From an uncultured Bacteroidales bacterium (GTDB taxonomy: Bacteria; Bacteroidota; Bacteroidia; Bacteroidales; Bacteroidaceae): a stretch of DNA of 64,000 nucleotides. The stretch is from NCBI GenBank assembly GCA_902763865.1, contig CACWTR010000002.1:12343-76342 (forward strand), written 5' to 3'. The translations under genes and the position numbers were made by a program. Under the pieces are notes generated by a model. That model had not been told where the DNA came from and ran no database searches. It worked only from the letters and a program-made list of their open reading frames with translations. Of the stretch, positions 8,815-22,024 are shown in pieces. Within the stretch, counting starts at the first letter, position 1. Every line of letters starts with the position of its first letter.

Positions 8815-8839
8815 TGAAATGCGGTTCATCATCTCACGA

Positions 8840-9069: not shown

Positions 9070-9091
9070 CACCAAATTAACGAATTTTGCT

Positions 9092-10024
9092 ATGGCAAAG
9101 AACCGCCTGCGCCTGAGCGAAGCGAAGAACCTTATCAACAAATATGTTTGGCTGGTGGACACCATCTATAGGGCCCGACGAATCACCTTCGAGGAAATCA
9201 ACCAGAAGTGGCTCGACCAGGAGATGGACACGAAGCCCATACCCATCCGCACCTTCCACAAATGGAAGATTGCGGCCGAGGACATGTTCAACCTCGTCAT
9301 CGAGTGTGAGCGCAAAGGCGGCTACCATTATTATATAGATAATGTGGAGGAAGTCAGGCGCGGAGGGCTTCGCAGCTGGCTGCTCAAGACCATCTCCGTC
9401 AGCAACCTGCTGCTGGACAGCCAGTCCATCAAGGACCGCATCCTCCTCGAGGATGTTCCTTCAGGGCAGGACGATTTGGCGCTCATCCTCGAAGCGATGA
9501 AGACGAACACCCAGCTTCGCATCACCTACCAAAGCTATTGGCGCGAAGAGAGTTACACATTCAACGTCCATCCCTATTGCGTGAAGCTCTTCAAGCAACG
9601 CTGGTATCTGGTTGCACTCAGCCCGCACCTCAACCGCATCATGATTTATGCCCTCGACCGCATCTTCGACATCGCCAAGCTCGACGGCGTGACCTTCACG
9701 ATGCCCGACGACTTCTACCCCGAGGACTTCTTCTACAACTACTACGGCATCATCGCCGGCACCAAGCGTAAGCCTGAAAAGGTCAGACTGAAGGTTTCCG
9801 CAAGCCAAGCAAACTACCTCCGCTCCCTGCCGCTCCACGACACCCAAGAGGAAACGGAAAGGAACGAAGCTTTCAGCATCTTCACCCTTCGCATCTGTCC
9901 CGAATTCGACTTCTATCAGGAGATTCTGTCGAATGGCGAAGATGTCGAAGTGCTCGAACCAATCTGGCTCCGTAAGGAGATAGCAGGAATGATAAACAGA
10001 ATGTGGAACAAATATAACAAGTAA
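9092..10024 (+). CDS. WYL-domain transcriptional regulator (HTH-WYL-WCX architecture)
   Basis: N-terminal HTH-like region (IPIRTFHKWKIAAEDMFNLVIECERKGGYHYYI). WYL core FKQRWYLVAL. C-terminal extension. First gene of the island. Confidence 0.85.
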   Translation: MAKNRLRLSEAKNLINKYVWLVDTIYRARRITFEEINQKWLDQEMDTKPIPIRTFHKWKIAAEDMFNLVIECERKGGYHYYIDNVEEVRRGGLRSWLLKTISVSNLLLDSQSIKDRILLEDVPSGQDDLALILEAMKTNTQLRITYQSYWREESYTFNVHPYCVKLFKQRWYLVALSPHLNRIMIYALDRIFDIAKLDGVTFTMPDDFYPEDFFYNYYGIIAGTKRKPEKVRLKVSASQANYLRSLPLHDTQEETERNEAFSIFTLRICPEFDFYQEILSNGEDVEVLEPIWLRKEIAGMINRMWNKYNK

Positions 10025-10035
10025 AAATTTCATTT

Positions 10036-10731
10036 ATGTACATGACAATCAGCGACGTAACCCTAAAATATCTTTGTCAAAAGTATCGCCATGACATTGG
10101 ATTGGGTACAAACAAATTCCTTCCTGGTATAAAAATCCGCTATGTAGCAGCAAACAAACATTTCGGCTATGCCTATTTCGGAGATTTTTTCTTCTTTGGC
10201 GATGACTTTTATGTTTGGGAGAAAGACGACAAATATGCAGCAGACCATAATCAGGACATCGTTGAGGAAGTATTTGGCGATGAATGCAAAGGGCGTGGCT
10301 ATGCCCGCAGAGTCATATTTGCCGGTGTTTTGACGGATTTTACCGACGACAATGGAGAAGGAATATACACTGGTGATGTTATAAAGGTAGAAATGAAGGA
10401 CGAATACACAAGATATTTTGCTGTTGGAGCCTGGAGTTATGAAGATGGCAAAGGAGAGTATTGCTTCATCCTCGACAACCACAATTGGTCGTTGGAAGAT
10501 TGTCAGAGGCAGCATTATCAGATGACACGTGTGGGCACAGTGTTTTATCAGTTGGACGCGAGTGATTCAATTCGGGTCAACCATCGTGTCATGAACTTTA
10601 ATAGATGGAGAGATACAGAAGAAGACAGGCTGCAAAAAGTCTTAATGGCAAAATACACACCCAACTTCGACCAGGAATTCTGGAGATATAGAGGACTTGA
10701 AATACTGGGAGTAGAATTTGACTGGAAATAA
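10036..10731 (+). CDS. hypothetical protein with a YopX-like motif; paralog of 11998-13050
   Basis: Shares IRY..FGYAYFGDF, FAGV.T.F.D.NG..IYTGDVI and RVGTVF with the second copy. The D.NG..IY.GD(I/V) pattern recalls phage YopX proteins. AT-rich. Confidence 0.6.
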   Translation: MYMTISDVTLKYLCQKYRHDIGLGTNKFLPGIKIRYVAANKHFGYAYFGDFFFFGDDFYVWEKDDKYAADHNQDIVEEVFGDECKGRGYARRVIFAGVLTDFTDDNGEGIYTGDVIKVEMKDEYTRYFAVGAWSYEDGKGEYCFILDNHNWSLEDCQRQHYQMTRVGTVFYQLDASDSIRVNHRVMNFNRWRDTEEDRLQKVLMAKYTPNFDQEFWRYRGLEILGVEFDWK

Positions 10732-10744
10732 AATAATTATAACT

Positions 10745-11290
10745 ATGAAAACAGAAAAAATTAACATCGGACAAATTGGAGAAACAGCTGTAGTATTGGA
10801 ACTTCTCAAGAAGGGTTTTGACGTTATCAACATCAATAATTCCTATCAGAATTACAAGAATGCAGATTTAATTTGTATGAATCATGGTACAGGAAAGAGT
10901 GTGATGATACAAGTCAAGACGGGTACATCTCATAATATTTTGGTAGGTTTTACATCAGAATTGGATGGCACAGTTCCTAAATTAGAAGAAAAAGTGATAG
11001 GGCCATGGGTGTTTGTTTTTATGAATAAGCATGATTATGGCATGAAGTTTTATGTGCTGACTAGAGAAGAAACCATAGAACTTATTAAAACAAGCTGCGA
11101 TTGGTATGCAAATGAATGGAACCGCCAGTTGAAAAATAAACCATTAATCGGTGTTGAGGTGGATTGGCTGGAAGCAAAACCTTCTGTAGCTTCAAAGCCA
11201 AATGCTAAGAAACAACATTCTGAGTATAAGAGTACGTTGTGTCAAACATCAGAGAACAAGTGGGAGAAAATAATAGGTTTACTATATTGA
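10745..11290 (+). CDS. PD-(D/E)xK-fold nuclease-like protein (Hjc/restriction-endonuclease-like core)
   Basis: GQIGETAVVLELLKKGFDV ... ADLIC ... VMIQVKTG gives E / D / QxK spacing typical of the fold. ATG at 10745 (the track TTG start at 10718 is less likely). AT-rich. Confidence 0.55.
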   Translation: MKTEKINIGQIGETAVVLELLKKGFDVININNSYQNYKNADLICMNHGTGKSVMIQVKTGTSHNILVGFTSELDGTVPKLEEKVIGPWVFVFMNKHDYGMKFYVLTREETIELIKTSCDWYANEWNRQLKNKPLIGVEVDWLEAKPSVASKPNAKKQHSEYKSTLCQTSENKWEKIIGLLY

Positions 11291-11795
11291 TGTAAACGGA
11301 GATAAGAAGGAATTTGCAGCAATAGATTTTGAGACCGCCAATAATGAGCGCAGTTCGGTTTGCTCTGTTGGGGTGGTTATCGTTCGTAACGGCGAGATAG
11401 TCGATTCGTTCTACTCCCTCATTCAGCCCGAGCCGAACTACTACAACTATTGGTGTTCACAGGTTCATGGCCTTTGCCGGGAAGACACAGAAGATGCCCC
11501 CATCTTCCCTGATGTCTGGGCACAGATAGAGCCGCTGATAGAGGGTCTGCCCCTTGTGGCCCACAACAGGCCCTTCGACGAGAGTTGCCTCAAAGCCGTC
11601 TTCCGCGTCTATCGGATGGACTATCCCGACTATGAGTTCCTCGACACACTTTGTGTCTCCCGTCGCAAGTTCCCTTCCCTGCCGAACCACCAGTTGCAGA
11701 CCGTCGCCCAGGCCTGCGGCTTCTGCATGAAGAACCACCACCACGCCCTCGCCGACGCCGAGGCATGTGCCTGGATAGCAAGGGAGATACTGTAA
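11286..11795 (+). CDS. DEDDh (DnaQ/epsilon-like) 3'-5' exonuclease; start codon non-canonical or lost
   Basis: Exo I AIDFETAN (11319-11342), Exo II LVAHNRPFDESCL and Exo III HHALADAEA are all intact. The frame is open only from 11277, with no ATG/GTG/TTG before Exo I. ATT at 11286 overlaps the upstream TGA. Confidence 0.75.
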   Translation: MDVNGDKKEFAAIDFETANNERSSVCSVGVVIVRNGEIVDSFYSLIQPEPNYYNYWCSQVHGLCREDTEDAPIFPDVWAQIEPLIEGLPLVAHNRPFDESCLKAVFRVYRMDYPDYEFLDTLCVSRRKFPSLPNHQLQTVAQACGFCMKNHHHALADAEACAWIAREIL

Positions 11796-11922
11796 CGACA
11801 AACAAAGTGCTCATCGAAAAGAGCAGAAATTAGCAAAAGCGCTCATCCAAATGAGCAATTTTACAGAAAGAATACAAAGTAGATATTGTGAATAACGTGC
11901 AAAATATACACGATAAAGATAG

Positions 11923-11997
11923 CAAGAGGAACTCTCTCTTGGACTTCGCAAGGAGAAATTGAATAGAATGTGGAATAAAAAGAAAAATAAAGAAACT
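11923..11997 (+). pseudogene. remnant of the 3' end of a second WYL-regulator gene
   Basis: Translates QEELSLGLRKEKLNRMWNKKKNKET. The intact WYL C-terminus is WLRKEIAGMINRMWNKYNK. AGAATGTGGAAYAAA is shared. Confidence 0.6.
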
Positions 11998-13050
11998 ATG
12001 GATTTCCATTTCAACAAGTTTAGCTTTTGGGGCATTCAAGATTTATGCCGTACTCATTACAGAGAAATCTTGCAACGCAAGAATTTAAAGTCTGTTATTG
12101 ATGGTAGAAAAGTGCGTTTCATTGATCCACTTGGCGAATTCTGCTATGCAGACTTTGGTGATTTCTATAACGGTAGCATGGGTACAATGATGCTTGTCAC
12201 ACGCGAGAAAAAGTACGCACAGTTTCATGAACCTGATGAGCTATCTAATACTCTATGGTCAACTATTCCTGTGTTTTATGCAGGCGTTGAGACCAAATTT
12301 AGAGATGAAAATAATAACATGATTTTTACAGGTGATGTGGTGACATATAAAGGATGGACATCAATGGTTAGATTTTTTGGTGATTATACAAGGCCTGGAT
12401 TAGCAGGGGATAATTGTGAAATACTTTTTGAAGATTTAGAACCAATTCATAAGATAGGGACTGTCTTTTCAGATATACCCATCTCGCTACCTCGAGGCTT
12501 TGATTATAATTTTTTCCAATGGCCATTAGAACGTTTTGTTCCTCAAGGAATCAGTATTGATGAAATGATTGCAAGAGCGCAGAAATCATACAAAAAACCG
12601 CATTTCGCAGATGAATTGCCAAAGTTGAAACGATGGAAACGCAATGTATATGAAAATATCGCCGAGACTTTGACACAAGATGATATTCTTGTTTACTTTA
12701 TAGGCGATGAGGTGGAAGATGAAGAGTATGGCGTGTACAATGAGATTCTTGCTGATTATATACCTGAATCATTCAAGGGGAAAGAACTTACACTCCATTT
12801 GCCAGAAGATAAATGGGAACTGAAGAGTTGGAAGGAGCTGATTAATGATTTCTTATTGACAGCTCATTTTAACCCTGACAAAAGATATGTGTTCTGCGAT
12901 TTCAGAAAGCAACTCGGAATAACCAAAAGGATTGAACATGCATTCGCTATGACGTTCTATGATTGGTATGAGTACAATATCCCTAATGTTGCTCTGCCAT
13001 TATGGATATACATATGCCATGTAGGACATGATTGTATAGGACGCGATTGA
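11998..13050 (+). CDS. hypothetical protein, YopX-like paralog 2 with a long C-terminal extension
   Basis: VRF..FCYADFGDF, FYAGVETKFRDENNNMIFTGDVV and KIGTVF align with 10036-10731. The ATG at 11998 (MDFHFNKF) is preferred over the TTG at 11959. Confidence 0.7.
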   Translation: MDFHFNKFSFWGIQDLCRTHYREILQRKNLKSVIDGRKVRFIDPLGEFCYADFGDFYNGSMGTMMLVTREKKYAQFHEPDELSNTLWSTIPVFYAGVETKFRDENNNMIFTGDVVTYKGWTSMVRFFGDYTRPGLAGDNCEILFEDLEPIHKIGTVFSDIPISLPRGFDYNFFQWPLERFVPQGISIDEMIARAQKSYKKPHFADELPKLKRWKRNVYENIAETLTQDDILVYFIGDEVEDEEYGVYNEILADYIPESFKGKELTLHLPEDKWELKSWKELINDFLLTAHFNPDKRYVFCDFRKQLGITKRIEHAFAMTFYDWYEYNIPNVALPLWIYICHVGHDCIGRD

Positions 13051-13095
13051 GAAATCCTTGCCGATGCAGAAGCATGTGCATGGAAGCAAGGATGA
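13051..13095 (+). pseudogene. remnant of the 3' end of a second DEDDh exonuclease gene
   Basis: In frame right after the TGA of the previous ORF: EILADAEACAWKQG*. The intact gene reads ALADAEACAWIAREIL*. The nine identical residues differ only at synonymous third positions, shifted to A/T. Confidence 0.65.
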
Positions 13096-13142
13096 AACGA
13101 TGAGTTATTATCAAAAATGTTTGGAAGAATTATAATAAGTTG

Positions 13143-13150
13143 TATCTTTG
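13143..13150 (+). promoter_or_regulatory. candidate -7 box TATCTTTG upstream of the DUF262 operon
   Basis: TAnnTTTG match ~195 nt upstream of the ATG at 13346. Confidence 0.4.
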
Positions 13151-13345
13151 CAAAGGAAAACTAAACAACAAACACTATGAGTAAAGTATTTCGCATTACA
13201 CCCAAACGCATTAAGCGGGCAAATGGGAACGGTGCTGACAATGACAATCACATTCAACACAGAATCATACACCAACTACCCTGTTTTATAACGGGGAAGC
13301 CAAAATCCAAAAGAAATATATGTACTTAAATTAATCAGCCGAAAA

Positions 13346-15301
13346 ATGGTAAAAAACAATATTTTATATAGTATCAAGAATCTTTTCTCTAAAGAAGGAG
13401 GATTCTTAAATGAAGGAGAGTATTTCAATATTCCGGAATATCAGCGTGGCTACAAATGGTCGGCACAAAATATCACAAAACTTTTGGATGATATAAGCTC
13501 CTTTGAGACCAATGGGGATTCTGAGAAATTTTATTGTCTTCAGAACATAACGATTGTTTACAATGAGAATAAAGGAGAATATAATGTTGTGGATGGTCAA
13601 CAGCGACTAACAACGCTTACAATACTTCTATCCTATTTTGATTGCTACGACTTGATAAAAAACAAATTACGTTATTCTATTCGAGAAGACACTCGTACTT
13701 TTCTTGAAGAATATATCTACAAGAATCGGAAAGAAGAATGGAAGTCATGGAATTCAGACTGGAATTCATTTATACAGTTAAAACCAGAATGTGATTTTCA
13801 GGATATTTTTTATATATTTACAGCATATAATACTATTGCAAAATGGTTCTCGAACCATGATGTCAATGGGTTCCTAGAAAAGCTTCTTCACAATGTTGAT
13901 ATCATAGTTAACCAACCAAAGACTAAGGATGAGACAAAACTATTTGCCAACTTGAACGGCGACAAAGTTTCCCTAGATGGTGCCGACATCGTTCGAGCAA
14001 TGATTGTTACACATGTAGCAAAAGAAGAGTCCGATGAGATTAGGGATGAGGACAAATTGCTTGTAATGCTTAACGAGCGTCGGGTAAGAATAGGCATGAC
14101 ACTTGATAATATTACTAGATGGTGGACAATTAAAGATCATGTTGACTATTACAAGCCATTTATTAAAGGCATTAAATCGGCAGAGGGGGAGGTCTTGAAA
14201 TTTGATGAAAATGATAATGCAATTAATCGCCTTTACAAGCTTTACATTGCTACCCAGAACTATACTCAGAAAAACCTTACCATAAGTCTTGAAAAGTTTG
14301 AGCATCCTTATCCAGATAACTCTTTTTCTGTTTTGTATGAAAAACTGGTGTGGTTGCAGCGTCTAATTGAGTCTTGGTATGATGATAAAGTTCTTTATCA
14401 TCTTATTCCCTTCTGCATTATATATTGTAAAAAGACTTTTTTCTGGATGGTAGATACATGGAAGGAATCCACTAGAAAAACATTCGAAGAGAGGTTGAAA
14501 GAGGTAATTCGGGAATGGATTGAATCTATGAAAGAACAAAGGCTTTATAGTAAAGAACTATCTAGTACAGAAAATCCAAACGAGACTATGATTAGTGATA
14601 ATGCGACTCTCTCGTTGGCAGAAGACAATGAAAAACTTGCAAGTACCGAGAATTGGTATGAGAGTTCTTATTTGGAGCCGGTTCTAGTTCTTTTGGATAT
14701 CATAGCCATTTGTAAGTCTGAATCCAAGGATAAATTGCCTCCATTGTTTTTTGTAGCTTTCAAAGAAGACGAAGAACACATTTTCCCTCAAACTCCTATA
14801 GAGAAAATCAATCAATCCGAATACACCCGTCAAACAAATAAACTAAGGAAATACATTGATATAGTAAACGATTACATACAGAAAGCCAATGAATCCCCAA
14901 TTGAATTTGATGAGGCTGATACTCATTGGGATGATGAAAAATGGCGAGAAGAACAGCGAAAACGTTACAATGAAATAATCCTTAAATACATGCCGATTAA
15001 TTCTTTAGGAAACATGGCTCTTCTAAATGAATCTGTGAATAGAGGCTACGGTAACGATTTCTTTACTGAGAAAAGAATTGATGTGATGAAGGCTTATCGA
15101 GTAGGGGGATACATTAGGCCGCATGTTATGGATGCATTTAACAAACAGTTTTTAGAAAGGTCCGATTTAGACGATGACTTTTCTAGAATGAAATGTTGGG
15201 AGAAAGAAGACATCTTGGCACGCAGAGAATATATGGTTAGAACAATATGTGATTTTTTAAATATTCAACTTAAAGATAAAAAGAATGAAACAGACCAATA
15301 A
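13346..15301 (+). CDS. GmrSD-like DUF262 (ParB-like NTPase/nuclease) plus DUF1524 (His-Me finger) protein
   Basis: N-terminus FNIPEYQRGYKW ... VVDGQQRLTTLTILL. C-terminus EEHIFPQTP ... NSLGNMALLNESVNRGYGN. Confidence 0.85.
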   Translation: MVKNNILYSIKNLFSKEGGFLNEGEYFNIPEYQRGYKWSAQNITKLLDDISSFETNGDSEKFYCLQNITIVYNENKGEYNVVDGQQRLTTLTILLSYFDCYDLIKNKLRYSIREDTRTFLEEYIYKNRKEEWKSWNSDWNSFIQLKPECDFQDIFYIFTAYNTIAKWFSNHDVNGFLEKLLHNVDIIVNQPKTKDETKLFANLNGDKVSLDGADIVRAMIVTHVAKEESDEIRDEDKLLVMLNERRVRIGMTLDNITRWWTIKDHVDYYKPFIKGIKSAEGEVLKFDENDNAINRLYKLYIATQNYTQKNLTISLEKFEHPYPDNSFSVLYEKLVWLQRLIESWYDDKVLYHLIPFCIIYCKKTFFWMVDTWKESTRKTFEERLKEVIREWIESMKEQRLYSKELSSTENPNETMISDNATLSLAEDNEKLASTENWYESSYLEPVLVLLDIIAICKSESKDKLPPLFFVAFKEDEEHIFPQTPIEKINQSEYTRQTNKLRKYIDIVNDYIQKANESPIEFDEADTHWDDEKWREEQRKRYNEIILKYMPINSLGNMALLNESVNRGYGNDFFTEKRIDVMKAYRVGGYIRPHVMDAFNKQFLERSDLDDDFSRMKCWEKEDILARREYMVRTICDFLNIQLKDKKNETDQ

Positions 15302-17051
15302 TGCATTCCTAAAGGATGAAAATATATTAACTCTTTTCTCTTTGAATAATTTAATTATTCCAGAGATTCAACGTGAATATGTTTGGGGAAGAAACACAAA
15401 TGTTCTTGAAAAATTCTTAAACGACCTCAAAGAGAGTGCTGATGTATGCGATACATGCCATCATGTGCATGGGAATAATAATATCAATATAGGATTCTTG
15501 TACTCATATAAACCACCATACGTCAAACTAGAAAATGATAGATATCTTGATGAATTTCTTATTGATGGACAACAACGAATTACTACAATCTTTCTTTTGC
15601 TTCTAACCCGTGCTGTGGTTGAAAACAGAGTAGAGGATTTCTGCAACATTATTAGATATGACGAAGCAGGTAAACATATGAGTTTTAGCTACAAAGTCCG
15701 CAACCTAACCCAAGACTTCCTATTAATGCTGATTCGCCATATAATAGAACACCCATACAAAGAAACGCTAAATTTCTTCCTTACAAAGGAGTATCCCTTT
15801 TGGTTTTTGGCAGAATATAATGAAGATCCAACCATCGCTGCTATGGCGAGTGCAATTAGTTCTATGTTGAAGATATTCCCATCTAATGAATACTATTTCG
15901 ACTATTTACTTGAAAGCGTTCATTTTTGGCATTTTAAAACCGAAGCTACTTCCCAAGGAGAAGAACTCTATATCAGTATGAATTCTCGTGGAGAACAACT
16001 ATCCAGTAATGAAACACAAAAAGCTGCATCCCTGCCCCCAAAAGATCAAATTATTTGGGGCAGGAAATGGGAAGAGTGGCAAACATTTTTCTGGAGGAAT
16101 CGTAATAAAGAAGCGGTAAACATTAATGCTGACAAGGGTCTCAATCAGTATTTAAGTTGTATCGATTCTCTAGAAAGATTTAGATATGAATTATCAACAA
16201 AAGACACAGTATCTGAAGAATACCTTGGTAATTTTCATGCAGACATTAAAGACATAGATATTTACATGGATGCCTTGCGTTTTATATGCGACAAAAAGAA
16301 TTTCAAACTTGATTCTTATTCCTATCAAGAATGGTATGATTCATTTATGGCTGACATATGGACGGAGCTGAATAAAAACGAAAGCAGTTGGTATGTTTCT
16401 AAATCTACCTATAATAACGATGCCATAGCGAAGAATAAAGCTATGCTGTTCTGGTCGTGGATGTATTATTATAAATTGAAACGTGATAACACCATTGATT
16501 CATCAGAAATGTTAAGGCTGATGCATTTCTACTATGTCAGGTATCATTGCTATAAAAGATCCGCAAGACCGCTCTTCTCTATTGTTGAGGATGTGGCAAA
16601 AAACGGCTTTTGTGTGTTTAAACAACTTAACGGCAATAATGAAGTAATTGATGATGAAGACAAGGAAGGTGAAACTGACTCAAGATTGTTTAGCAATGAA
16701 GAAATAGTTCTTTCAAAAATATTCAATTTGAATCCAACCAGTCCTTTTGCTTTAGAAGCATCATGCTGGAAATTGCAAGATTTACCTTATTTAAAGGACG
16801 GCAAGAAAGTCGGAGGGAATACTATTAATGAGTTTCTTAATTATATTGCCATAGATAATGAACAAAAAGCTATCCAGGATATGGATACTTTATATTCAGA
16901 CTTCAAATCACTTTTTGATAATGCCGAGAACTTCAACAAAGTGAAAAGCTTATTACTATTTTATTGCGACGATAATGGAGATCCGTTCTGGCAGCGACAA
17001 TCTCCATACTATTATAGTAATTATGAATGCAGTTCAAAAAAAGAATCGTAA
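15285..17051 (+). CDS. second DUF262-domain protein (no DUF1524 motif seen)
   Basis: LIIPEIQREYVWGR ... LIDGQQRITTIFLLLL ... MNSRGEQLS. The start overlaps the previous stop by 17 nt. It ends just after an A7 tract. Confidence 0.8.
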   Translation: MKQTNNAFLKDENILTLFSLNNLIIPEIQREYVWGRNTNVLEKFLNDLKESADVCDTCHHVHGNNNINIGFLYSYKPPYVKLENDRYLDEFLIDGQQRITTIFLLLLTRAVVENRVEDFCNIIRYDEAGKHMSFSYKVRNLTQDFLLMLIRHIIEHPYKETLNFFLTKEYPFWFLAEYNEDPTIAAMASAISSMLKIFPSNEYYFDYLLESVHFWHFKTEATSQGEELYISMNSRGEQLSSNETQKAASLPPKDQIIWGRKWEEWQTFFWRNRNKEAVNINADKGLNQYLSCIDSLERFRYELSTKDTVSEEYLGNFHADIKDIDIYMDALRFICDKKNFKLDSYSYQEWYDSFMADIWTELNKNESSWYVSKSTYNNDAIAKNKAMLFWSWMYYYKLKRDNTIDSSEMLRLMHFYYVRYHCYKRSARPLFSIVEDVAKNGFCVFKQLNGNNEVIDDEDKEGETDSRLFSNEEIVLSKIFNLNPTSPFALEASCWKLQDLPYLKDGKKVGGNTINEFLNYIAIDNEQKAIQDMDTLYSDFKSLFDNAENFNKVKSLLLFYCDDNGDPFWQRQSPYYYSNYECSSKKES

Positions 17052-17461
17052 GATGTCAGGCATTTCTGAATTTTTATAGAGAATATAGAGAAAAAAAGAA
17101 TCTCGATATGATGCTGGTTGAGAAAAGAAATATATTCTTCTCAGAATTTCGTGTTTTCAATTTCGATGAAGTGCAAGTCCCCTCGATGAAACATATAGTT
17201 ATCGTTTATGATGCTATATTGTCAAATAACTCAAATTTTACGCAGGTTTGGAATAACGACTCTTTGGCATTTAGTGATAATATTACAGAAGAGGATATAT
17301 CAAAAAAACAATATCTGTATAGGAGTCAAATAAAATTATGGAGTCTTAAACGATATTTTGGTTCTAATTATCAAGAAATTGTACTTCCAAAAGGATGGCG
17401 TCAAAATTTAACCGAGGAATATTCAAATATCTCTTTTGAGTTTTTGAATTATGATAATTAA
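17027..17461 (+). CDS. hypothetical 144-aa ORF, possibly the frameshifted C-terminus of the preceding DUF262 protein
   Basis: Overlaps the previous ORF by 25 nt across A7 (17036-17042). No recognisable motif. Same AT-rich composition. Confidence 0.45.
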   Translation: MQFKKRIVRCQAFLNFYREYREKKNLDMMLVEKRNIFFSEFRVFNFDEVQVPSMKHIVIVYDAILSNNSNFTQVWNNDSLAFSDNITEEDISKKQYLYRSQIKLWSLKRYFGSNYQEIVLPKGWRQNLTEEYSNISFEFLNYDN

Positions 17462-17476
17462 CGTCGAATTTAAATT

Positions 17477-17989
17477 ATGACCACCTTCATCTCCAACTCC
17501 GACCACTACAAAGAGGTGCTGTCGCGGGTGAAGGCCGTGAAGCACACGCTTTGGATTGGGACTGCCGACATTAAAGACCTTTACGTTGAGATGGGCAAGG
17601 AAACAAAACCTTTCTTGGCTCTCATTGCCCAGCTCATTCGGAAGGGTGTGGAGGTGCGGCTGATTCATGCAAAGGAGCCTGGGCCGAACTTCAGGGAAGA
17701 CTTCGACAAGTACCCTGTTCTATATGATCGCTTGGAGCGTGTGCTTTGTCCACGAGTCCACTTCAAAATGCAAGTCTTTGACTGCAAGGAGGTGTATGTG
17801 GGTAGCGCGAACCTTACTGGTGCCGGCATCGGAATGAAGACAGACAACAAGCGAAACTTCGAGGCTGGCATCCTGACCGATGACCCGGAAATCGTGGAGC
17901 AGGCCATGAACCAGTTCGACGAAGTATGGATAGGGAAACATTGCAAGATCTGCAAACGAAGAGACTTCTGCCTTGACCCAATCGCATAA
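17477..17989 (+). CDS. single-HKD phospholipase D-family (Nuc-like) nuclease
   Basis: HFKMQVFDCKEVYVGSANLTG fits HxK-x4-D-x6-GSxN. C-terminal HCKICKRRDFC Cys cluster. 15 nt after the previous ORF. GC-richer than its upstream neighbours. Confidence 0.85.
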   Translation: MTTFISNSDHYKEVLSRVKAVKHTLWIGTADIKDLYVEMGKETKPFLALIAQLIRKGVEVRLIHAKEPGPNFREDFDKYPVLYDRLERVLCPRVHFKMQVFDCKEVYVGSANLTGAGIGMKTDNKRNFEAGILTDDPEIVEQAMNQFDEVWIGKHCKICKRRDFCLDPIA

Positions 17990-18018
17990 ATCTTTTCGAT
18001 AAAAGTTCACTTCCTTTC

Positions 18019-18052
18019 GACCTCTGCCCCTAAACGGCAGAGGTCTTTGCTT
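18019..18052 (+). terminator. hairpin plus weak T-tract after the PLD gene
   Basis: GACCTCTGCC (18019-18028) / GGCAGAGGTC (18036-18045), followed by TTTGCTT. Confidence 0.5.
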
Positions 18053-18094
18053 ACTTCGCACTCAGATTCGTTTAATCTCAAAAGACAAAGTAAG

Positions 18095-19735
18095 ATGGCT
18101 ACGAAAAAGAAGATGGACTTGCTCACGGCTGTGGAGCAGATTGTGGACAAAGCAAAGGGTTCGGGACTCAGCAGCGAGTTCTATCGCAAGGCTGACAAAT
18201 ACATTAAATATGTGTCAGAAAGGTTAGATATGACAAAGGAACAATGCGTCATGATGGCTTTGTTTATCGACAATAGCCACGACGACACTATCCTAATCAG
18301 CGAATTGGGTAAGTTCCTTGAGTGCCGCACAACCCGACTCATCAAGTACATGGCTGAGATTGATGTTCTGGAGAAACGTGAATATGTCAGATGCAACCGA
18401 AACCGTGGCATCAGCTACAAAGTTCCCATGGAAGTGATTGAGGCCTTCAAGAACAACGAGAAGTTTGTGGCGAAAGACTGCTCCGGGCTTTCGTGTTCGG
18501 AGCTTTTCGGTGAGATAGAAAGTCTTTTTGAGAGAAGGGATGAAAAGGATATAACGTACGTGGCTCTGGTGGAAAAGATGAATCATCTGTTTGACAGCAA
18601 CAAGCAACTTCTGTATGTTCAGAAGGTGAAAAGCTATAATTTCTGCAAAGATGACGAGATGATGCTGATTCTCTTTTCACATCTGTTCGTCAACAACTGC
18701 GATGATAACATCGGATTTCACGACATCGACTTCCTCTTTGATAGCAAAAGGCATTGGAGGTTAGAAAAAGCTAGCTTTGAAAAAGGTGACCACATTCTTC
18801 TGGAAGAGCATCTCATAGAGAACAATAACAGTGATGGCTTCTCTGACAGGGTGTCCTTCCGAATGACTAATCAGGCAAAACGGGAGCTTTTCAGCGAGCT
18901 CGGCTTGGCTGCTTTAAGGAAGAACGCCCAGCGAAGAGACATCATCAAGTCGGAGAAAATCGCTCCGAAGAAACTCTTCTATGGCGAGAAAGTCGGCGAA
19001 CAAATTGCGGAATTAGAGAAACTACTGGAGGAAGAAACCTACAACGGGATTCGTACACGCATGAAGGAGACTGGCTTCCGTTGCGGCTTCACTTGCCTTT
19101 TCTATGGTGAGCCAGGAACGGGCAAGACAGAGACCGTGCTTCAGTTGGCAAAGCAGACTTGCCGAGACATCATGCAGGTGAACATCTCGCAGATCAAGAG
19201 CATGTGGGTTGGCGAAAGCGAGAAGAACATCAAGCAGCTCTTCGACGACTATCGGGCAAGGGCTATGGAAAGCGAGCTTACGCCCATCCTGCTCTTCAAC
19301 GAGGCCGATGCCATCATCAACAAACGTCGGGAAGGAGCCGAGAGAGCCGTTGATAAGATGGAGAACTCCATTCAGAACATCATCCTCCAGGAGATGGAAA
19401 CGCTCGACGGCATCCTCATCGCCACAACGAACCTCGCTCAGAACATGGACAAAGCCTTCGAGCGCCGCTTCCTCTACAAGATAAAGTTCGAGAAGCCGAC
19501 CATAGAAGCCCGCATGAGCATGTGGCACGAAATGATTCCTGCCCTCGGAGAGGAAGACTCGCGGGCTTTGGCTTTGAAGTACGACTTCAGCGGCGGTCAG
19601 ATAGAGAACATCGCCAGGCATTATGTCATCGGCAACATCTTGCACGGATGCTCCGATGATATCGTGAAGGAACTCTCTGCTTATTGCGACAGCGAGAAAT
19701 TGCAATCGAAGGAAACACGTAGAATTGGGTTCTGA
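18095..19735 (+). CDS. AAA+ ATPase with an N-terminal winged-helix-like domain
   Basis: Walker A GEPGTGKT. Walker B ILLFNEADAI. CDC48/FtsH-type AAA core. N-terminal ISELGKFLECRTTRLIKYMAEIDVLEKREYV looks wHTH-like. ATG at 18095 (MATKKKMD). Confidence 0.85.
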   Translation: MATKKKMDLLTAVEQIVDKAKGSGLSSEFYRKADKYIKYVSERLDMTKEQCVMMALFIDNSHDDTILISELGKFLECRTTRLIKYMAEIDVLEKREYVRCNRNRGISYKVPMEVIEAFKNNEKFVAKDCSGLSCSELFGEIESLFERRDEKDITYVALVEKMNHLFDSNKQLLYVQKVKSYNFCKDDEMMLILFSHLFVNNCDDNIGFHDIDFLFDSKRHWRLEKASFEKGDHILLEEHLIENNNSDGFSDRVSFRMTNQAKRELFSELGLAALRKNAQRRDIIKSEKIAPKKLFYGEKVGEQIAELEKLLEEETYNGIRTRMKETGFRCGFTCLFYGEPGTGKTETVLQLAKQTCRDIMQVNISQIKSMWVGESEKNIKQLFDDYRARAMESELTPILLFNEADAIINKRREGAERAVDKMENSIQNIILQEMETLDGILIATTNLAQNMDKAFERRFLYKIKFEKPTIEARMSMWHEMIPALGEEDSRALALKYDFSGGQIENIARHYVIGNILHGCSDDIVKELSAYCDSEKLQSKETRRIGF

Positions 19736-19779
19736 TTGCAAATTATTTACAGATGGCTTGGATGTAAGGGAAAATGTCG

Positions 19780-19787
19780 TAACTTTG
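19780..19787 (+). promoter_or_regulatory. candidate -7 box TAACTTTG for the Fic gene
   Basis: TAnnTTTG match 18 nt upstream of the ATG at 19805. Confidence 0.4.
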
Positions 19788-19804
19788 CAAAAAGTTCATG
19801 AACT

Positions 19805-20803
19805 ATGGAGGAAAATAAGATAATAATCTATCAGACAGAGGACGGACAGACGCAGATTGATGTCAGGCTGGAGAATGAGACTGTATGGCTTACGCAAGCT
19901 CAGATGGCTGAACTGTTTCAGAAGGACAGAACAGTGATAACTCGTCATATTAACAATGTATTTAAGGAAGGAGAATTGGAGAAAGAAGAGGTATGTGCAA
20001 AATTTGCACACACCACTCGACATGGAGCTTTGACGGGTAAAACACAAATGCAAGAGACTGTTCTATACAACCTTGATGTTGTCATTTCCGTTGGCTATCG
20101 TGTAAAGAGCAAGCGCGGCACAGCTTTCCGCATCTGGGCTCGTAAGATTCTGAAAGACTACCTCATCAAAGGCTATGCCATGAACGAGCGTATTCGCAAA
20201 GAGCAGATAGGTGAGCTTCGTCAGCTGGTCGGAATGCTTGGGCGTGCCGTACAAAGCCAGCCTCTGCTCTCCAGCGATGAAACGAATGCCCTCTTCGAAG
20301 TGGTGACGGACTACACTTATGCCCTCGACACGCTCGACAACTACGACTACGAGCGCCTGACCATCGAGAAGACCACGAAGGAAGAACCCTTTCATGCCAC
20401 CTACGAAAATGCTATGAAAGAGATTCGTCGCCTTCGCGAGAAGTTTGGGGGCTCAGTCTTGTTCGGCAACGAGAAGGACGACTCTTTCAAGAGCAGCATC
20501 GGACAGATATACCAGACCTTCGGCGGCGAAGAACTCTATCCCAGCGTAGAGGAGAAAGCCGCCATGCTCTTGTATCTCGTCACCAAGAACCACTCCTTCA
20601 GCGACGGAAACAAACGCATCGCAGCCACCTTGTTCCTCTGGTTCCTCAACAACAACGGCATTCTCTATCGCAAAGACGGCTCAAAACGTCTCGCCGACAA
20701 CACCCTTGTAGCCCTGACCCTGATGATTGCCGAGAGCAAGACAGAAGAAAAGGACGTGATGGTAAAGGTTGTGGTGAACCTGATTAATCAGAGGAATAAT
20801 TAA
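19805..20803 (+). CDS. RhuM-like N-domain plus Fic/Doc-family protein
   Basis: N-terminus IIIYQTEDGQTQIDVRLENETVWLTQAQMAELF is RhuM-like. C-terminus HSFSDGNKRIAA is a Doc-type Fic motif. Confidence 0.85.
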   Translation: MEENKIIIYQTEDGQTQIDVRLENETVWLTQAQMAELFQKDRTVITRHINNVFKEGELEKEEVCAKFAHTTRHGALTGKTQMQETVLYNLDVVISVGYRVKSKRGTAFRIWARKILKDYLIKGYAMNERIRKEQIGELRQLVGMLGRAVQSQPLLSSDETNALFEVVTDYTYALDTLDNYDYERLTIEKTTKEEPFHATYENAMKEIRRLREKFGGSVLFGNEKDDSFKSSIGQIYQTFGGEELYPSVEEKAAMLLYLVTKNHSFSDGNKRIAATLFLWFLNNNGILYRKDGSKRLADNTLVALTLMIAESKTEEKDVMVKVVVNLINQRNN

Positions 20804-20853
20804 AAAAACAAATGTGAATTGCAGGAATTCTTATAAAATTACTAATTAAATCT

Positions 20854-22005
20854 ATGAGTAAGGTGATTACAGAGAAGAGAGAAAAGTATGCCAACTGGGT
20901 AAAAAGAGTTTGTGACTTCATAAGTCAAATTGGTCCTCAATTAAATCTTCCTGTTGGAGCGATGCAATCAGACATTTCTGAAGCAATAGAGAATGATATT
21001 AATATCATGTTCCTTGGCCATGACCCGCATGAAGTACCGAAGGAAGACTATAAATTTGAAGATGGAGATTATATTAAAGAACGTTTTGAGACAGGAAATC
21101 CTTGTTGGGGGGACAGAAATGCCAAATGGCCTATCTGGAAAAATCTACGTGATAATTTTATAAGTGTTTATGGGGAATCTTCGCTTATGGATGACACAAA
21201 ACATATGGTCTTTACTAATGCTGTTTTCTTCACTGGAGACAATATAAAGTTAGTATTAGATCAAATTGGTACGAGTGTCGAATGGAAATGCTTAGATTAT
21301 ACGAATGAATTGATATTTGACATTCTTTATCCCAAGATTCTTGTTTGCTTCTCTGTAAGTGATGTGTTCGATAAACTTATCAAAACGATAAATAGAAAAA
21401 GCGAAAATAAACTAACTGTTCATCGATTCAAACCTTATAATATCAAACACATTTGTGCATTAACACAATATAATGGGACTATTATTTTAGGAATTCCACA
21501 CCCAAGTGGTGCTCATGGCATATTCGGTTCGTTACCTGCAATTGTACGTATCATTAACGATTTGTCAAAGGGTGATAAAATAGAGAACATCGTTGCAACT
21601 AAGAATCTGTTCCTTAATTCTCAAGAGAAGAATCAATCTGTGATTCCAAGAATAGATAAAACGAATATTGTACAACAAGTTATATCATCAGGCTATCTTG
21701 AGGCCTATGAAGAAAAGAACCATAGGTATAAACTGAATGAAATATACGGCATAACGATAACCGATACACGAAAAGGTTATATAGCAATAAGACATATTAA
21801 ATATGATTATAAAGGTTATGCCAACACTCAAGATAAAGAAGTACTTGCTATTAAGGATATGTTGAAAGGACGGAAATACAATACTTCTGAAAATGCTTGG
21901 ATAGGGGAAAAAACATTTTCTCAGTTTGGCAATAACGATAACGAGATTATAGAACGAATTTGCAAGGAAATAAAAGAACTTAAAGAAGTAATCCAGAAGA
22001 TGTAG
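20854..22005 (+). CDS. hypothetical protein with a uracil-DNA-glycosylase-superfamily-like N-domain and an unknown C-domain
   Basis: Element order matches the UDG fold: IMFLGHDPHE (compare family-1 GQDPYH), MVFTNAVFF, CLDYTNELIFDILYPKILVCFS, ILGIPHPSGAHG (compare HPSP). AT-rich. From recall only. Confidence 0.5.
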   Translation: MSKVITEKREKYANWVKRVCDFISQIGPQLNLPVGAMQSDISEAIENDINIMFLGHDPHEVPKEDYKFEDGDYIKERFETGNPCWGDRNAKWPIWKNLRDNFISVYGESSLMDDTKHMVFTNAVFFTGDNIKLVLDQIGTSVEWKCLDYTNELIFDILYPKILVCFSVSDVFDKLIKTINRKSENKLTVHRFKPYNIKHICALTQYNGTIILGIPHPSGAHGIFGSLPAIVRIINDLSKGDKIENIVATKNLFLNSQEKNQSVIPRIDKTNIVQQVISSGYLEAYEEKNHRYKLNEIYGITITDTRKGYIAIRHIKYDYKGYANTQDKEVLAIKDMLKGRKYNTSENAWIGEKTFSQFGNNDNEIIERICKEIKELKEVIQKM

Positions 22006-22024
22006 TTTTCTTCAAATAATAACA

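Follow-up and report, generated by a model that had tools for sequence, protein, structure and literature searches.

The window, a 64,000-nt stretch of the chromosome of an uncultured rumen Bacteroidales, carries an island (about 8622–22223) between a fucO-like gene and ntpD, and every ORF of this island lies on the + strand (Table 1). The first-pass annotation had counted eleven ORFs here; there are thirteen, two of which (15285–17051 and 17027–17461) are a single gene split by a 1-nt deletion. Its domain calls hold well for the WYL, DEDDh, DUF262-pair, HKD/PLD, AAA+ and Fic proteins, are weaker for the PD-(D/E)xK-like protein (sub-threshold YraN matches) and the UDG-like protein (family matches only), and had left two YopX-like genes (10036–10731 and 11998–13050) unnamed.

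The compositional mosaic described in that annotation is clear from a 1-kb window profile, in which the core DNA has a mean G+C content of 0.593 (sd 0.023, minimum 0.534), whereas the island falls to 0.32–0.51; overall, the island is put at 32–55% and the core at 59%. Its five single-line hand counts are exact to rounding (51.7, 56.7, 31.7, 26.7 and 61.7%). Pooled values are 0.49 for the genes shared between strains (the scaffold), 0.35 for the cassettes and 0.59 for the core; the scaffold is thus the G+C-richer part, and the cargo the AT-rich part.

Table 1. Features of the fucO–ntpD interval and its flanks (window coordinates)
Feature	Position	Strand	Remarks
fucO-like Fe-dependent alcohol dehydrogenase, left flank	7327–8481	-	Pfam Fe-ADH + ADH_Fe_C
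189-bp segment, window-type variant only	8622–8810		other variants fuse 8621 directly to 8811
Three consecutive GTTTC-N6-7-GAAAC inverted repeats	8856–8914	+	150–230 bp upstream of WYL gene
Bacteroidetes-type -7 promoter box TAACTTTG	9062–9069	+	30 nt before WYL start codon
Scaffold gene 1, wHTH-WYL-WCX transcription regulator, 310 aa	9092–10024	+	Pfam WYL 9.5e-15, WCX 4.1e-13
Cassette 1 gene a, YopX-like protein (YopXa), 231 aa	10036–10731	+	Pfam YopX 6.3e-5, barely above cut-off
Cassette 1 gene b, putative PD-(D/E)xK (YraN-like) nuclease, 181 aa	10745–11290 (ORF from 10718)	+	
Scaffold gene 2, DEDDh (DnaQ-like) 3'-5' exonuclease	11304–11795 (canonical-start ORF 11373–11795)	+	Pfam RNase_T 3.6e-18
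Probable remnant of WYL gene 3' end (..LRKE..NRMWNK..)	11940–11994	+	fused upstream of YopXb; direct repeat D3
Cassette 2 gene a, YopX-like paralogue (YopXb), 350 aa	11998–13050	+	
TAnnTTTG promoter box ahead of type IV restriction operon	13143–13150	+	
Cassette 2 gene b, GmrSD DUF262+DUF1524 nuclease, TgvB-like member	13346–15301	+	Pfam GmrSD_N 2.8e-29
Cassette 2 gene c, DUF262-only partner, TgvA-like	15285–17461	+	ORF 15285–17051 GmrSD_N only
Scaffold gene 3, single-HKD PLD-family (Nuc-like) nuclease, 170 aa	17477–17989	+	Pfam PLDc_2 2.3e-13; DrmC-like matches
Terminator-like hairpin after PLD	18019–18045	+	10-pair stem, T-rich tail
AAA+ ATPase, 546 aa	18095–19735 (alternative start 18047)	+	Pfam AAA 6.6e-25; PADLOC IetA 1.2e-28
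TAnnTTTG promoter box	19780–19787	+	25 nt before RhuM-Doc gene; also direct repeat D5
Scaffold gene, RhuM-Doc/Fic fusion, 332 aa	19805–20803	+	Pfam RhuM 8.6e-21, Fic 9.5e-12
Cassette 3, 383-aa protein, UDG-superfamily-like N-terminal domain, C-terminal domain without assignment	20854–22005	+	
ntpD, V-ATPase subunit D, right flank with native promoter	22224–22897 (gene 22289–22897)	+	Pfam ATP-synt_D 1.7e-37

Scaffold genes, cassettes and regulatory elements

When the AF2 model of the WYL protein (pLDDT 79) was searched with Foldseek, all 32 significant matches belonged to the same regulator class, among them DriD (1.5e-13), PafBC (1.6e-11), CapW (1.7e-7) and BrxR (8e-7). Both sequence and fold place it nearer to DriD, an activator, than to BrxR and CapW, which are repressors, so that regulation of either sign is conceivable. 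In 28 of 34 loci the WYL ATG is preceded, at 23–31 nt, by a TAnnTTTG box, which we take to be the -7 promoter consensus of Bacteroides. The segment around the box of the restriction operon (13117–13234) is 77% identical to the upstream region of a different GmrSD pair in the conspecific variant V2, ntpD has its native box (TATCTTTG) at 22242, and the terminator-like hairpin falls in a module (17483–18219) common to the variants.

The GTTTC-N6-7-GAAAC repeats keep their arms while their loops differ in all six conspecific variants, were not found in the other 28 WYL upstream regions examined, and arise in 0–1% of shuffled sequences; they are candidate operator or insulator sites. They lie unusually far from the WYL promoter and are confined to this species, so that an operator role is tentative. 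In the 189-bp segment at the left edge, CACGAATT units form a perfect 29-nt inverted repeat (8684–8712 / 8742–8770). This palindromic element is a dispersed one, with a second copy at 26495–26581 and another in the related locus L101. The segment also holds a G+C-rich hairpin (8781–8815).

The DEDDh gene has an intact frame and shares 97% amino-acid identity with its undamaged counterpart in variant V3 (163 aa). Its ATG is changed to AAG, and no canonical in-frame start occurs before the GTG at 11373, past catalytic motif I. The PLD protein has more than 570 metagenome relatives at 85–95% amino-acid identity. The AAA+ protein combines an IetA-like C-terminal ATPase domain with an N-terminal half without assignment; homologues come straight after PLD in four other loci, and at a greater distance downstream in four more. 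The RhuM-Doc/Fic fusion shows an HSFSDGNKR motif in its translation, a full-length match to PADLOC PDC-S23 (3.8e-143) and a PHROG match to a Doc-like toxin (5.8e-18), and is predicted to be a toxin-type defence effector.

The window holds three cassettes: a pair of YopX-like and PD-(D/E)xK-like proteins, a YopX-like protein with a GmrSD pair, and a UDG-superfamily-like protein. For the putative nuclease of cassette 1, the YraN matches are all sub-threshold (E about 4e-4), phrog_5018 matches at 2.6e-5, a D...QVK motif can be seen by eye in the translation, and no match was found in the PDB. In cassette 2, YopXb matches YopXa at 29% (tblastn), has no Pfam or PHROG match, and is 40–48% identical to proteins directly after WYL in V2, L148 and L175. 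The adjoining GmrSD nuclease has a GmrSD_C match of 6e-4, below the Pfam cut-off, visible QR and DGQQR motifs, and relatives at 77–85% that bear a precomputed PF07510. The PADLOC run proposed in the first-pass annotation returned HEC-06 and SspE N-terminal matches for this protein, besides those to the AAA+ and RhuM-Fic proteins. The cassette 3 protein has 124 homologues, and 25 of 36 members of its family match Pfam UDG (best E=1.8e-5); the window protein itself gave no match, and the fold search with its AF2 model (pLDDT 79) gave no significant match. The sole recognisable restriction module in the island is type IV (modification-dependent), a class for which no methyltransferase is required.

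The DUF262-only partner carries a 1-nt deletion at an A-run (17036–17042), giving ORFs of 588 and 144 aa. Against the undamaged partner in L190 (731 aa), these align to residues 1–584 (82%) and 583–720 (58%); the identical lesion is present in L001, L003 and L011. With DEDDh startless and this partner frameshifted, the window copy may be partly inactive.

Variation at the site and the reach of the scaffold

The exact fucO and ntpD proteins occur on 21–23 conspecific rumen-metagenome contigs (fucO on 23, and in all conspecific variants), with flanks 98.4–99.5% identical to the window and at least five different cargo sets at the site. In sister species (L022–L026), a polysaccharide-synthesis gene directly abuts ntpD, fucO is missing between PST and ntpD, and homology to the window starts again at 22224–22234. 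The site is thus variable within the species and empty in sister species. The comparison of the fucO–ntpD interval yielded both the empty site and the alternative cargo that the first-pass annotation had sought. Had relatives carried the same gene set at uniform composition, or had all functions been housekeeping ones, its reading would have been refuted; the results are the opposite.

Aligned by blastn, the variants resolve into sharply delimited blocks, shared or unshared, whose junctions fall at gene boundaries. WYL (94–97% nucleotide identity) always adjoins fucO, RhuM-Fic always adjoins ntpD, and PLD is common to all variants (90–97%). The variable segments (10021–11305, 11796–17482 and 20846/20910–22223) coincide almost to the base with the AT-rich cassettes delimited earlier by eye (10036–11290, 11800–17461 and 20804–22005); exactly the G+C-richer genes are common to the variants, and exactly the AT-rich blocks are variable. 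Among the conspecifics, cassette 1 gene a and cassette 3 are found in the window only, V3 retaining the first 56 nt of the latter. L156 and L176 have the cassette 1 pair too (78–82% aa), placed between their WYL and DEDDh genes, an extra insertion point that takes cassettes.

The scaffold genes diverge most at the ends that face the cargo: mismatches per 100 nt are 0–3 in the core, about 19 at the WYL 3' end, 13 in the first 100 nt of DEDDh and 11–15 in the first 300 nt of PLD. In other variants a deletion scar joins 18219 to 19672 within the AAA+ gene, an N+C remnant of which persists in V2, V3, L021 and L101. These gradients and scars suggest that exchange proceeds by homologous and illegitimate recombination, and the gene-precise junctions could also be compatible with some site-specific process. 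The RhuM-Fic allele of the window shares 94% identity with its counterpart in L101, from another species (flank 85–88%), and only 84–85% with those of the conspecific variants. The probable WYL remnant before YopXb shows collinear short matches to the WYL 3' ends of many loci (E=0.003), in keeping with the position of YopXb-like genes directly after WYL elsewhere.

The conserved genes form a scaffold extending far beyond this species; here the order is WYL, DEDDh, slot 1, PLD with its terminator, AAA+, RhuM-Doc, slot 2. Of the 25 related loci that are informative, 19 have PLD preceded by WYL and DEDDh, in various chromosomal contexts with housekeeping flanks. The 35 slots show 29 architectures, with 95 of 96 slot genes co-oriented and DUF262 proteins in 25 slots; minimal (WYL-DEDDh) states also occur. 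Across loci, scaffold GC3 follows host GC3 (r=0.69–0.77) whereas that of the cargo remains near 0.40 throughout (r=0.12), these loci being non-independent and host composition crudely estimated. The order is not universal, since relatives of GmrSD1 show permuted orders in two of three contexts and DEDDh is missing from two of six WYL lineages.

A probable defence hotspot and its alternatives

Taken together, these data make it likely that the island is a chromosomal phage-defence hotspot, not mobile by itself, in which a conserved, co-oriented scaffold offers slots for strain-variable AT-rich cassettes exchanged by recombination; the cassette-exchanging hotspot proposed in the first-pass annotation is thereby supported by the multiple cargo sets at a fixed site, the empty site and the defence-type cargo. 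The defence roles are predicted from domain homology and gene context. A decayed prophage, ICE or transposon inserted between fucO and ntpD seems highly improbable. The low G+C content, two proteins of the phage-associated YopX-like family, the palindromic mini-element at the left edge of this variant and an IS (rve) about 4 kb downstream of PLD in one unrelated locus would suit such an origin. However, domain searches of the island ORFs gave no integrase or transposase, the window contains no tRNA, and a repeat search gave no significant flanking direct repeat, as had been noted by eye; tRNAs are absent from the 35 related loci as well, megablast of the island found no match among 50,697 phage or 72,556 plasmid records, and PHROG matches are minimal. 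The variation is also internal to the island rather than all-or-none, and amelioration has brought the scaffold genes closer to the composition of each host.

It is distinctly unlikely that WYL, DEDDh, the DUF262 pair and PLD make up one modular type IV restriction system, with exchangeable DUF262 sensors, shared DEDDh/PLD effectors and WYL control, instead of several systems that act independently. The genes share one orientation and are closely packed, overlapping or with short gaps, with a promoter ahead of the pair and a terminator after PLD; in L021 and L174 the downstream PLD copy comes directly after a GmrSD-like pair, and L174 has a second pair upstream of the other PLD copy, with one further gene in between; a bare WYL-DEDDh-PLD trio exists; and DEDDh and PLD are conserved like core genes (84–95% aa) while WYL and the pairs diverge. 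However, pair and PLD persist where DEDDh is startless, as here, or reduced to its last 112 bp, as in V2, unrelated cargo (PDDEXK_4 and Mrr_cat, for example) is found ahead of PLD as well, most pairs already have their own DUF1524-like nuclease, GmrSD1 relatives have permuted or distant scaffold genes, and the tested two-protein GmrSD system TgvAB works as a two-gene unit (PMC11411939). We also consider it rather unlikely that the main role of WYL-DEDDh(-PLD) is in DNA damage or repair, as an operon of the DriD/PafBC type, beside which defence genes accumulate since insertions are tolerated, a reading that is compatible with a defence hotspot. The closest solved WYL relatives, DriD and PafBC, are ssDNA-activated damage-response regulators, but CapW and BrxR share the fold and CapW binds ssDNA too (9c5g); WYL-DEDDh stands alone among core genes in one lineage and 19 loci have a DnaE-like polymerase downstream of PLD, but DEDDh is dispensable in two variants and WYL-DEDDh almost always accompanies defence cargo in the sampled loci.

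In the hotspot that we favour, cassettes would be exchanged by homologous recombination with crossovers within the scaffold genes, which would serve as portable homology between species too, and illegitimate deletions and insertions would add to the turnover. The WYL protein may sense a nucleic-acid ligand, which for its closest solved relatives is ssDNA, and may control island transcription from the Bacteroidetes-type promoters; the GmrSD pair would cleave modified phage DNA, and the Doc-like, PLD and AAA+ proteins would act as independent effectors, in a copy that is probably partly decayed.

WYL regulators of the BrxR family co-localise with defence islands, type IV enzymes included (PMC9122601), and the GmrSD pair of the window is like TgvAB in joining one DUF262+DUF1524 nuclease to one DUF262-only partner. 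Hotspots of exchanged defence cassettes are already known; the present one has an unusually clear internal scaffold.

Composition and strain-variable content of the fucO–ntpD interval

From the 1-kb G+C profile, it is clear that the compositional island proposed in the first-pass annotation is real. The core of the window has a mean G+C of 0.593 (sd 0.023, minimum 0.534), whereas values between about 8.6 and 22.2 kb fall to 0.32–0.51, and every ORF of this island lies on the + strand. The five single-line G+C counts made earlier by hand were exact to rounding on recomputation. When G+C is pooled, the genes shared among strains (the scaffold: WYL, DEDDh, PLD and RhuM-Fic) reach 0.49, compared with 0.35 for the strain-variable cassettes, and the AT-rich cassettes that had been placed between GC-richer genes coincide with the blocks left unshared by blastn. 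A second low-G+C stretch of the window encodes a C25 (gingipain-like) peptidase, a T9SS sorting-domain protein, a TPR protein and several further ORFs without a Pfam match. Considered as a defence island, it appears instead to be an unrelated cell-surface/T9SS island.

The fucO–ntpD interval was compared across relatives, as the annotation had proposed, and contains alternative cargo in conspecifics and an empty site in sister species. Conspecific copies were taken from public assemblies, mostly rumen metagenomes, as contigs encoding the exact ntpD (21) or the exact fucO (23) protein. Their flanks are 98.4–99.5% identical to the window, which makes these contigs conspecific with it. The identical fucO and ntpD proteins enclose at least five different gene sets. 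Variant V1 has the window-type cargo, V2 has Nmad2/Nmad3 with two other GmrSD proteins, V3 has DUF2441, PDDEXK_4 and a DUF6557 gene set, V4 carries yet other cargo past WYL on a contig that stops shortly after, and V5 has an Mrr_cat nuclease. The ntpD scan of GTDB genomes places the host in an uncultured Bacteroidaceae/Prevotellaceae lineage of the rumen. In five sister species (ntpD 96–97% identical), a polysaccharide-synthesis gene (PST) directly abuts ntpD across an intergenic region of 0.4–1.5 kb (L022–L026). This junction is the empty site, and it lacks fucO too. Island variants of their own occur at ntpD in UBA4336 (L021), the sixth relative, and in L101, a metagenome contig.

The defence-type content of the window island comprises GmrSD, a DrmC-similar PLD, an IetA-like AAA+, PDC-S23 and the WYL regulator, and that of the other variants Mrr_cat, PDDEXK_4 and Nmad2/3. 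The locus is a defence island and hotspot, with strain-variable content at one site, an empty site in relatives and enrichment in known or candidate defence genes. The earlier reading of a cassette-exchanging hotspot is supported by at least five cargo sets with defence-type genes at this one site.

At the left border, the G+C of the fucO-like gene resembles that of the host and all strains have an identical copy, yet the gene is missing at this position in the five sister species, relative to which the inserted DNA includes fucO. On the other side, ntpD, ntpI and ntpK begin a transcription unit of their own, and the genes upstream are oppositely oriented. The V-ATPase operon of this clade therefore seems divided, as neither ntpA nor ntpB adjoins these genes.

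Features of the island, its surroundings and related loci (window positions unless another locus is named; identities of shared blocks are to the conspecific variants)
Feature	Locus	Coordinates	Remark
Inserted DNA relative to sister species	window	~7282–22223	fucO included
fucO-like gene	window	7327–8481	− strand
Unshared block	window	8622–8810	
Palindromic element	window	8622–8810	left edge of island
Shared block, WYL module	window	8811–10020	94–97%
Unshared block	window	10021–11305	
PD-(D/E)xK-like gene	window	10745–11290	
Shared block, DEDDh	window	11306–11795	94–96%
Unshared block	window	11796–17482	
YopXb	window	11998–13050	
GmrSD1	window	13346–15301	DUF262 + predicted DUF1524
GmrSD2 + orf144	window	15285–17461	DUF262-only
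Single-base deletion	window	17036–17042	between GmrSD2 and orf144
Shared block, PLD + downstream region	window	17483–18219	90–97%
Unshared block	window	18220–19671	
Shared block, RhuM-Fic	window	19672–20845/20909	84–85%
Unshared block	window	20846/20910 to ~22223	
orf383 (UDG-like)	window	20854–22005	
Shared block, core	window	from 22283	
ntpD	window	22289–22897	
ntpD, ntpI, ntpK	window	22289–25533	
Palindromic element, second copy	window	26495–26581	
Second low-G+C stretch	window	49400–61100	− strand; G+C 0.39–0.51
Palindromic element	L101	8177–8269	
ACGTG tandem repeats	L022	9800–9893	empty PST–ntpD intergenic
ACGTG tandem repeats	L025	9622–9671	empty PST–ntpD intergenic
ACGTG tandem repeats	L026	9524–9573	empty PST–ntpD intergenic
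DnaE-like gene	L147	3251–5710	downstream of PLD
bpMoxR/vWA/YgjP trio and four-gene set	L136	7759–9321	with neighbours
DMP19 gene	L186/L187	9304–9789	directly upstream of WYL homologue

Junctions, scars and the proposed exchange of cassettes

Block limits were taken from blastn of the window against the conspecific variants, and the junctions fall at gene boundaries. One lies at the stop codon of WYL; DEDDh has one 2 nt inside its start codon and another directly after its stop; the next lies 6 nt past the start of PLD, and the last a little upstream of the native ntpD promoter. Sister-species homology restarts at ~22224 and takes in this promoter; V2 and V3, which have a different promoter allele, align again from 22283, 6 nt short of the ATG of ntpD. 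Scars and lesions are present as well. The window DEDDh has AAG in place of ATG, with the rest of the frame intact and 97% identical to V3, and no canonical in-frame start precedes its catalytic motif I. The DEDDh remnant of V2 is the last 112 bp, V3 retains the first 56 nt of orf383, and in other variants position 18219 is joined to 19672, which leaves a short ORF combining the two termini (N and C) of AAA+. A stretch ahead of YopXb is a probable remnant of the WYL 3′ end. Junction sequences and a repeat search revealed no motif shared across the cassette junctions, and a common recombination motif there was rejected.

Two repeat families were seen around these borders. A dispersed palindromic element of ~87 bp, with arms of three CACGAATT units and a loop that differs among copies, lies at the left edge of the island in the window-type variant only and looks MITE- or REP-like. 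Tandem repeats of ~22 bp with an ACGTG core occupy the empty PST–ntpD intergenic region of three sister species, and a homologous array directly follows the DEDDh stop in V2, V3, V5, V6, L102 and L103, though not in the window. The array may be bound by a regulator. It was rejected as a general attachment site, since it is found, at empty sites and after DEDDh, only in the clade of this species, is missing from the window variant and other taxa, and also occurs at unrelated places; we have treated it as ancestral intergenic sequence.

The core has 0–3 mismatches per 100 nt among the variants. This figure climbs to ~19 at the 3′ end of WYL, to 13 over the initial 100 nt of DEDDh and to 11–15 over the initial 300 nt of PLD, and the high-mismatch ends of these three genes are the ones that face the cargo. 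The most divergent stretch is the N-terminal RhuM part of RhuM-Fic, with 27–47 mismatches per 100 nt. The window allele of this gene shares 94% identity with its counterpart in L101, which is another species (flank identity 85–88%), but 84–85% with those of conspecific variants. These gradients and the cross-species allele fit homologous recombination, in which crossovers inside the scaffold genes would swap the cassettes and other lineages would serve as donors; illegitimate deletions would contribute to cassette turnover. In addition, scaffold GC3 tracks host GC3 (r=0.69–0.77), whereas cargo GC3 is ~0.40 whatever the host (r=0.12), the loci being non-independent and the host estimate crude. 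This trend suggests a long-resident scaffold supplied from a common AT-rich cargo pool.

The island could instead be what is left of a decayed mobile element, but this is unlikely. No tyrosine or serine recombinase domain and no flanking repeats marking an integron or integrative element occur in the island, and tRNA genes are found neither in the window nor in the related loci; the domain scan, tRNA search and repeat search thus agree with the first-pass annotation, which had seen no integrase, tRNA or flanking direct repeat. Besides lacking recombinase, att and tRNA features, the island has no match among phage or plasmid records, and its variation is internal rather than all-or-none.

Predicted restriction and regulatory proteins

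Most of the earlier domain calls were upheld by scans, namely WYL with WCX, DEDDh/RNase_T, GmrSD_N with a weak GmrSD_C, GmrSD_N only, a single-HKD PLD, AAA+ and RhuM-Fic. For the two DUF262 proteins GmrSD_N scores 2.8e-29 and 1.1e-22, and both translations contain the QR/DGQQR motifs (EYQRGYKW/VDGQQRLTT and EIQREYVW/IDGQQRITT). In one member GmrSD_C reaches 20.1 bits, under the 23-bit Pfam cut-off; the strings EEHIFPQ and GNMALLNESVN are visible in it, and relatives at 75–82% identity carry precomputed PF07510. The products of GmrSD2 (588 aa) and orf144 (144 aa) align to residues 1–584 and 583–720 of an intact 731-aa partner from a related island, and on this alignment they are evidently one gene that has been split by a single-base deletion. 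Three independent contigs share this exact lesion. An assembly error was rejected on the basis of the A7 tract, which is the same in three contigs, and phase variation is not supported, since comparison with intact relatives points to the deletion of a single G with the tract length unchanged. The shorter GmrSD2 call in L003 is a gene-calling difference only, the DNA being identical.

TgvAB of the Vibrio cholerae island VPI-2, a type IV restriction system of the GmrSD family, has been tested: it is modification-dependent, has two proteins and requires both genes (PMC11411939). Like TgvAB, the window pair consists of two adjacent DUF262 genes with QR and DGQQR motifs, one of them bearing a DUF1524 His-Me nuclease (putative in the window), and involves no methyltransferase. 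The likeness is one of shared domains and motifs, and the gene order is reversed here, with the putative nuclease-bearing member first. In contrast to TgvAB, which lies in a type I R-M operon, the pair lies within the WYL/PLD scaffold, and its DUF262-only partner is not intact but frameshifted by the 1-nt deletion. From its TgvAB composition we infer that the pair encodes modification-dependent restriction, so that the sole recognisable restriction module would be of a class that needs no methyltransferase.

The PLD protein matches PLDc_2 (2.3e-13) and the PLDc active-site motif (7e-4), with HFKMQVFDCKEVYVGSAN in its translation; with ~170 aa and a single HxK(x)4D(x)6GSxN motif, it is a predicted PLD-superfamily (Nuc-like) nuclease. 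Its resemblance to DrmC raised DISARM as a candidate, but domain scans detected DrmA helicase, DrmB (DUF1998) or methylase in no island ORF. The AAA+ protein obtains an NCBIfam IteA score of 90, far under the cut-off of 510, and the IetAS system is not apparent, there being no IetS protease domain and the neighbours being PLD and RhuM-Fic. In HMM-level scans of the island proteins with PADLOC, RhuM-Fic matched PDC-S23, a candidate family, at full length (E=3.8e-143, residues 1–330 versus model positions 1–326 of 327); RhuM-Doc fusions have been predicted as toxins in multi-level defence loci and R-M neighbourhoods (PMC3710099). Two calls are less secure. For the PD-(D/E)xK-like protein, the call comes from sub-threshold YraN matches only. 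The UDG-like reading of orf383 is partly supported: the window protein itself has no Pfam match, but 25 of 36 members of its family match PF03167 (Pfam UDG, best 1.8e-5). The AF2 model of orf383 (pLDDT 79) gave no significant PDB fold match by Foldseek, with UDG at rank 11 (E 0.27); read by eye, its strings FLGHDPHE and IPHPSG resemble UDG motifs A and B. Neither the orf383 nor the PD-(D/E)xK-like sequence has a match in the PDB.

The WYL protein contains Pfam WYL and WCX, and its AF2 model has an N-terminal helix-helix-helix plus beta-hairpin. All 32 significant Foldseek matches belong to the wHTH-WYL-WCX class, with DriD the best (E=1.5e-13), followed by PafBC, CapW and BrxR (8e-7). Judged by this model, it is a transcription regulator of the DriD/PafBC/CapW/BrxR class. 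At the sequence level, phmmer against the PDB gave DriD and PafBC at E 0.009–0.06 and no BrxR or CapW chain at E<=1. DriD and CapW bind ssDNA via the WYL domain (PDB titles; PMC10853764).

A Bacteroidetes-type TAnnTTTG box precedes the WYL ATG by 23–31 nt in 28 of 34 loci, similar boxes lie ahead of GmrSD1, RhuM-Fic and ntpD in the window, and a terminator-like hairpin is present 3′ of PLD. A sigma-70 promoter scan returned 42 sites versus 34 expected, this model being uninformative for Bacteroidetes. Three GTTTC...GAAAC inverted repeats occur 120–200 bp upstream of the WYL −7 box, and were rejected as a conserved WYL operator because they are confined to this species. Because of its fold class, the TAnnTTTG boxes and the hairpin after PLD, the WYL protein is predicted to be a ligand-responsive regulator of several co-directional transcription units.

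BrxR-family regulators are found at the head of defence islands, and type IV enzymes make up 17.6% of BrxR-associated systems (PMC9122601). As in islands headed by BrxR or CapW (PMC9122601, PMC9122589, PMC9122588), a wHTH-WYL-WCX regulator here heads co-oriented defence genes, and type IV enzymes are common partners. Unlike in those islands, the fold is nearer to DriD/PafBC (E 1e-13) than to BrxR (8e-7), no promoter-adjoining operator was found, and the regulator is paired with DEDDh, 'exonuclease' occurring 0 times in the text of PMC9122601.

A scaffold of rumen and gut Bacteroidales and its relation to known systems

One metagenome scan with the PLD protein gave >570 relatives at 85–95% identity, and 80 loci were fetched for gene-order counts. 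In 19 of the 25 informative loci, PLD is preceded on its own strand by WYL and DEDDh. The DEDDh-to-PLD slots (n=35) measure 2.3–6.4 kb and comprise 29 architectures, with 95 of 96 slot genes co-oriented. DUF262 proteins are present in 25 of these 35 slots, usually as a pair of one DUF1524-bearing and one DUF262-only member. In other taxa the scaffold is flanked by housekeeping genes or an AbiE module. When loci were sampled around WYL homologues, the scaffold was seen in all its states: WYL-DEDDh with nothing but core genes around it, a bare trio of WYL, DEDDh and PLD whose empty slot measures 214 bp, loaded scaffolds, and WYL with other genes after it. Close GmrSD1 relatives (77–85%) reside in islands with the same modules, but the order is permuted in two of three contexts; the scaffold is thus a strong tendency and not a rule. 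We found no description of the WYL-DEDDh(-PLD) scaffold in the literature.

Modules recurring downstream of PLD include an 819-aa DnaE-like polymerase, a DUF6557 four-gene set and a MoxR-vWA-YgjP-peptidase trio, and none of the recurrent modules that were compared with PADLOC 2.0 is represented there. The DnaE-like protein, seen in 19 loci (L147, L164 and L171, for example), has PHP, Pol III alpha and finger domains and no C-terminal domains. The trio of bpMoxR AAA+, vWA and YgjP-like metallopeptidase and the four-gene set (~213 aa, the DUF6557 protein of 345 aa, 146 aa and 105 aa) recur in L136, L120 and L166, among others. Two PLD copies occur in one island in L174, L021 and L149. The downstream copy comes directly after a GmrSD-like pair in L021 (with a 278-aa gene in addition) and L174, and one further gene separates the other L174 copy from the pair upstream of it. 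Such paired copies could stem from unequal crossing-over between PLD anchors or form a functional pair-plus-PLD unit. In one Bacteroidales lineage, a gene for the DNA-mimic protein DMP19 lies directly upstream of the WYL homologue.

It is possible that these genes form one modular system, in which variable DUF262 sensors would work with constant DEDDh and PLD effectors; against this, DEDDh has been lost in two variants, PLD also follows unrelated cargo, and the DUF262 pairs have their own nuclease. PLD was rejected as the sole nuclease of the DUF262 pairs, most of which have a DUF1524-like domain of their own. We consider it rather improbable that the WYL-DEDDh-PLD trio is an autonomous, ancient Bacteroidales unit that is more than insertion-tolerant, acting as a modular type IV chassis or a docking platform. 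As a chassis, the trio may be the constant part of a modular type IV restriction system whose DUF262 sensor pairs are swapped like specificity subunits; as a platform, its conserved genes, and perhaps its nucleases, may promote integrase-free capture of defence cassettes. Both versions are compatible with the bare trio, the minimal pair, the 29 architectures in 35 slots and the gene-precise junctions. A primary role of WYL-DEDDh in DNA damage would be compatible with the main reading of a hotspot that exchanges defence cassettes.

Hotspots without mobility genes are already known, and the exchange of their cargo is still largely unexplained. The present locus is a tractable case, with short conserved anchors inside the island, crossover gradients within these anchors and anchor alleles found in more than one species. 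It is most useful as a clear natural system in which to study cassette exchange without an integrase, and as a starting point for finding new defence genes. The scaffold that it marks is widespread among Bacteroidales of the rumen and gut and easily searchable, and further defence systems could be sought in it; the locus also offers a large natural series of GmrSD variants made of two proteins.

The closest concept is the E. coli Immigration Control Region (ICR; hsd-mcrBC-mrr; Sibley & Raleigh 2004), where restriction genes vary like cassettes between conserved framework genes, with signs of frequent homologous exchange and no demonstrated mobile-element mechanism (PMC4498929). Alternative cassettes among conserved genes and signatures of homologous exchange are common to both. 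However, the genes are non-homologous, the ICR framework flanks the variable region whereas the regulator and nucleases are interspersed inside it here, and in a clade of family level the present scaffold is found at various chromosomal positions. The core defence hotspots of the E. coli pan-genome (PMC10121019) and of Pseudomonas aeruginosa (cDHS, PMC10250203), some of them without identifiable mobilisation, also hold strain-variable defence systems at a fixed site between core genes, but are defined by their flanking core genes only. The locus thus differs from these systems in three traits, namely the interspersed internal anchors, the strict co-orientation and the recurrence of WYL-DEDDh(-PLD) at different chromosomal sites.
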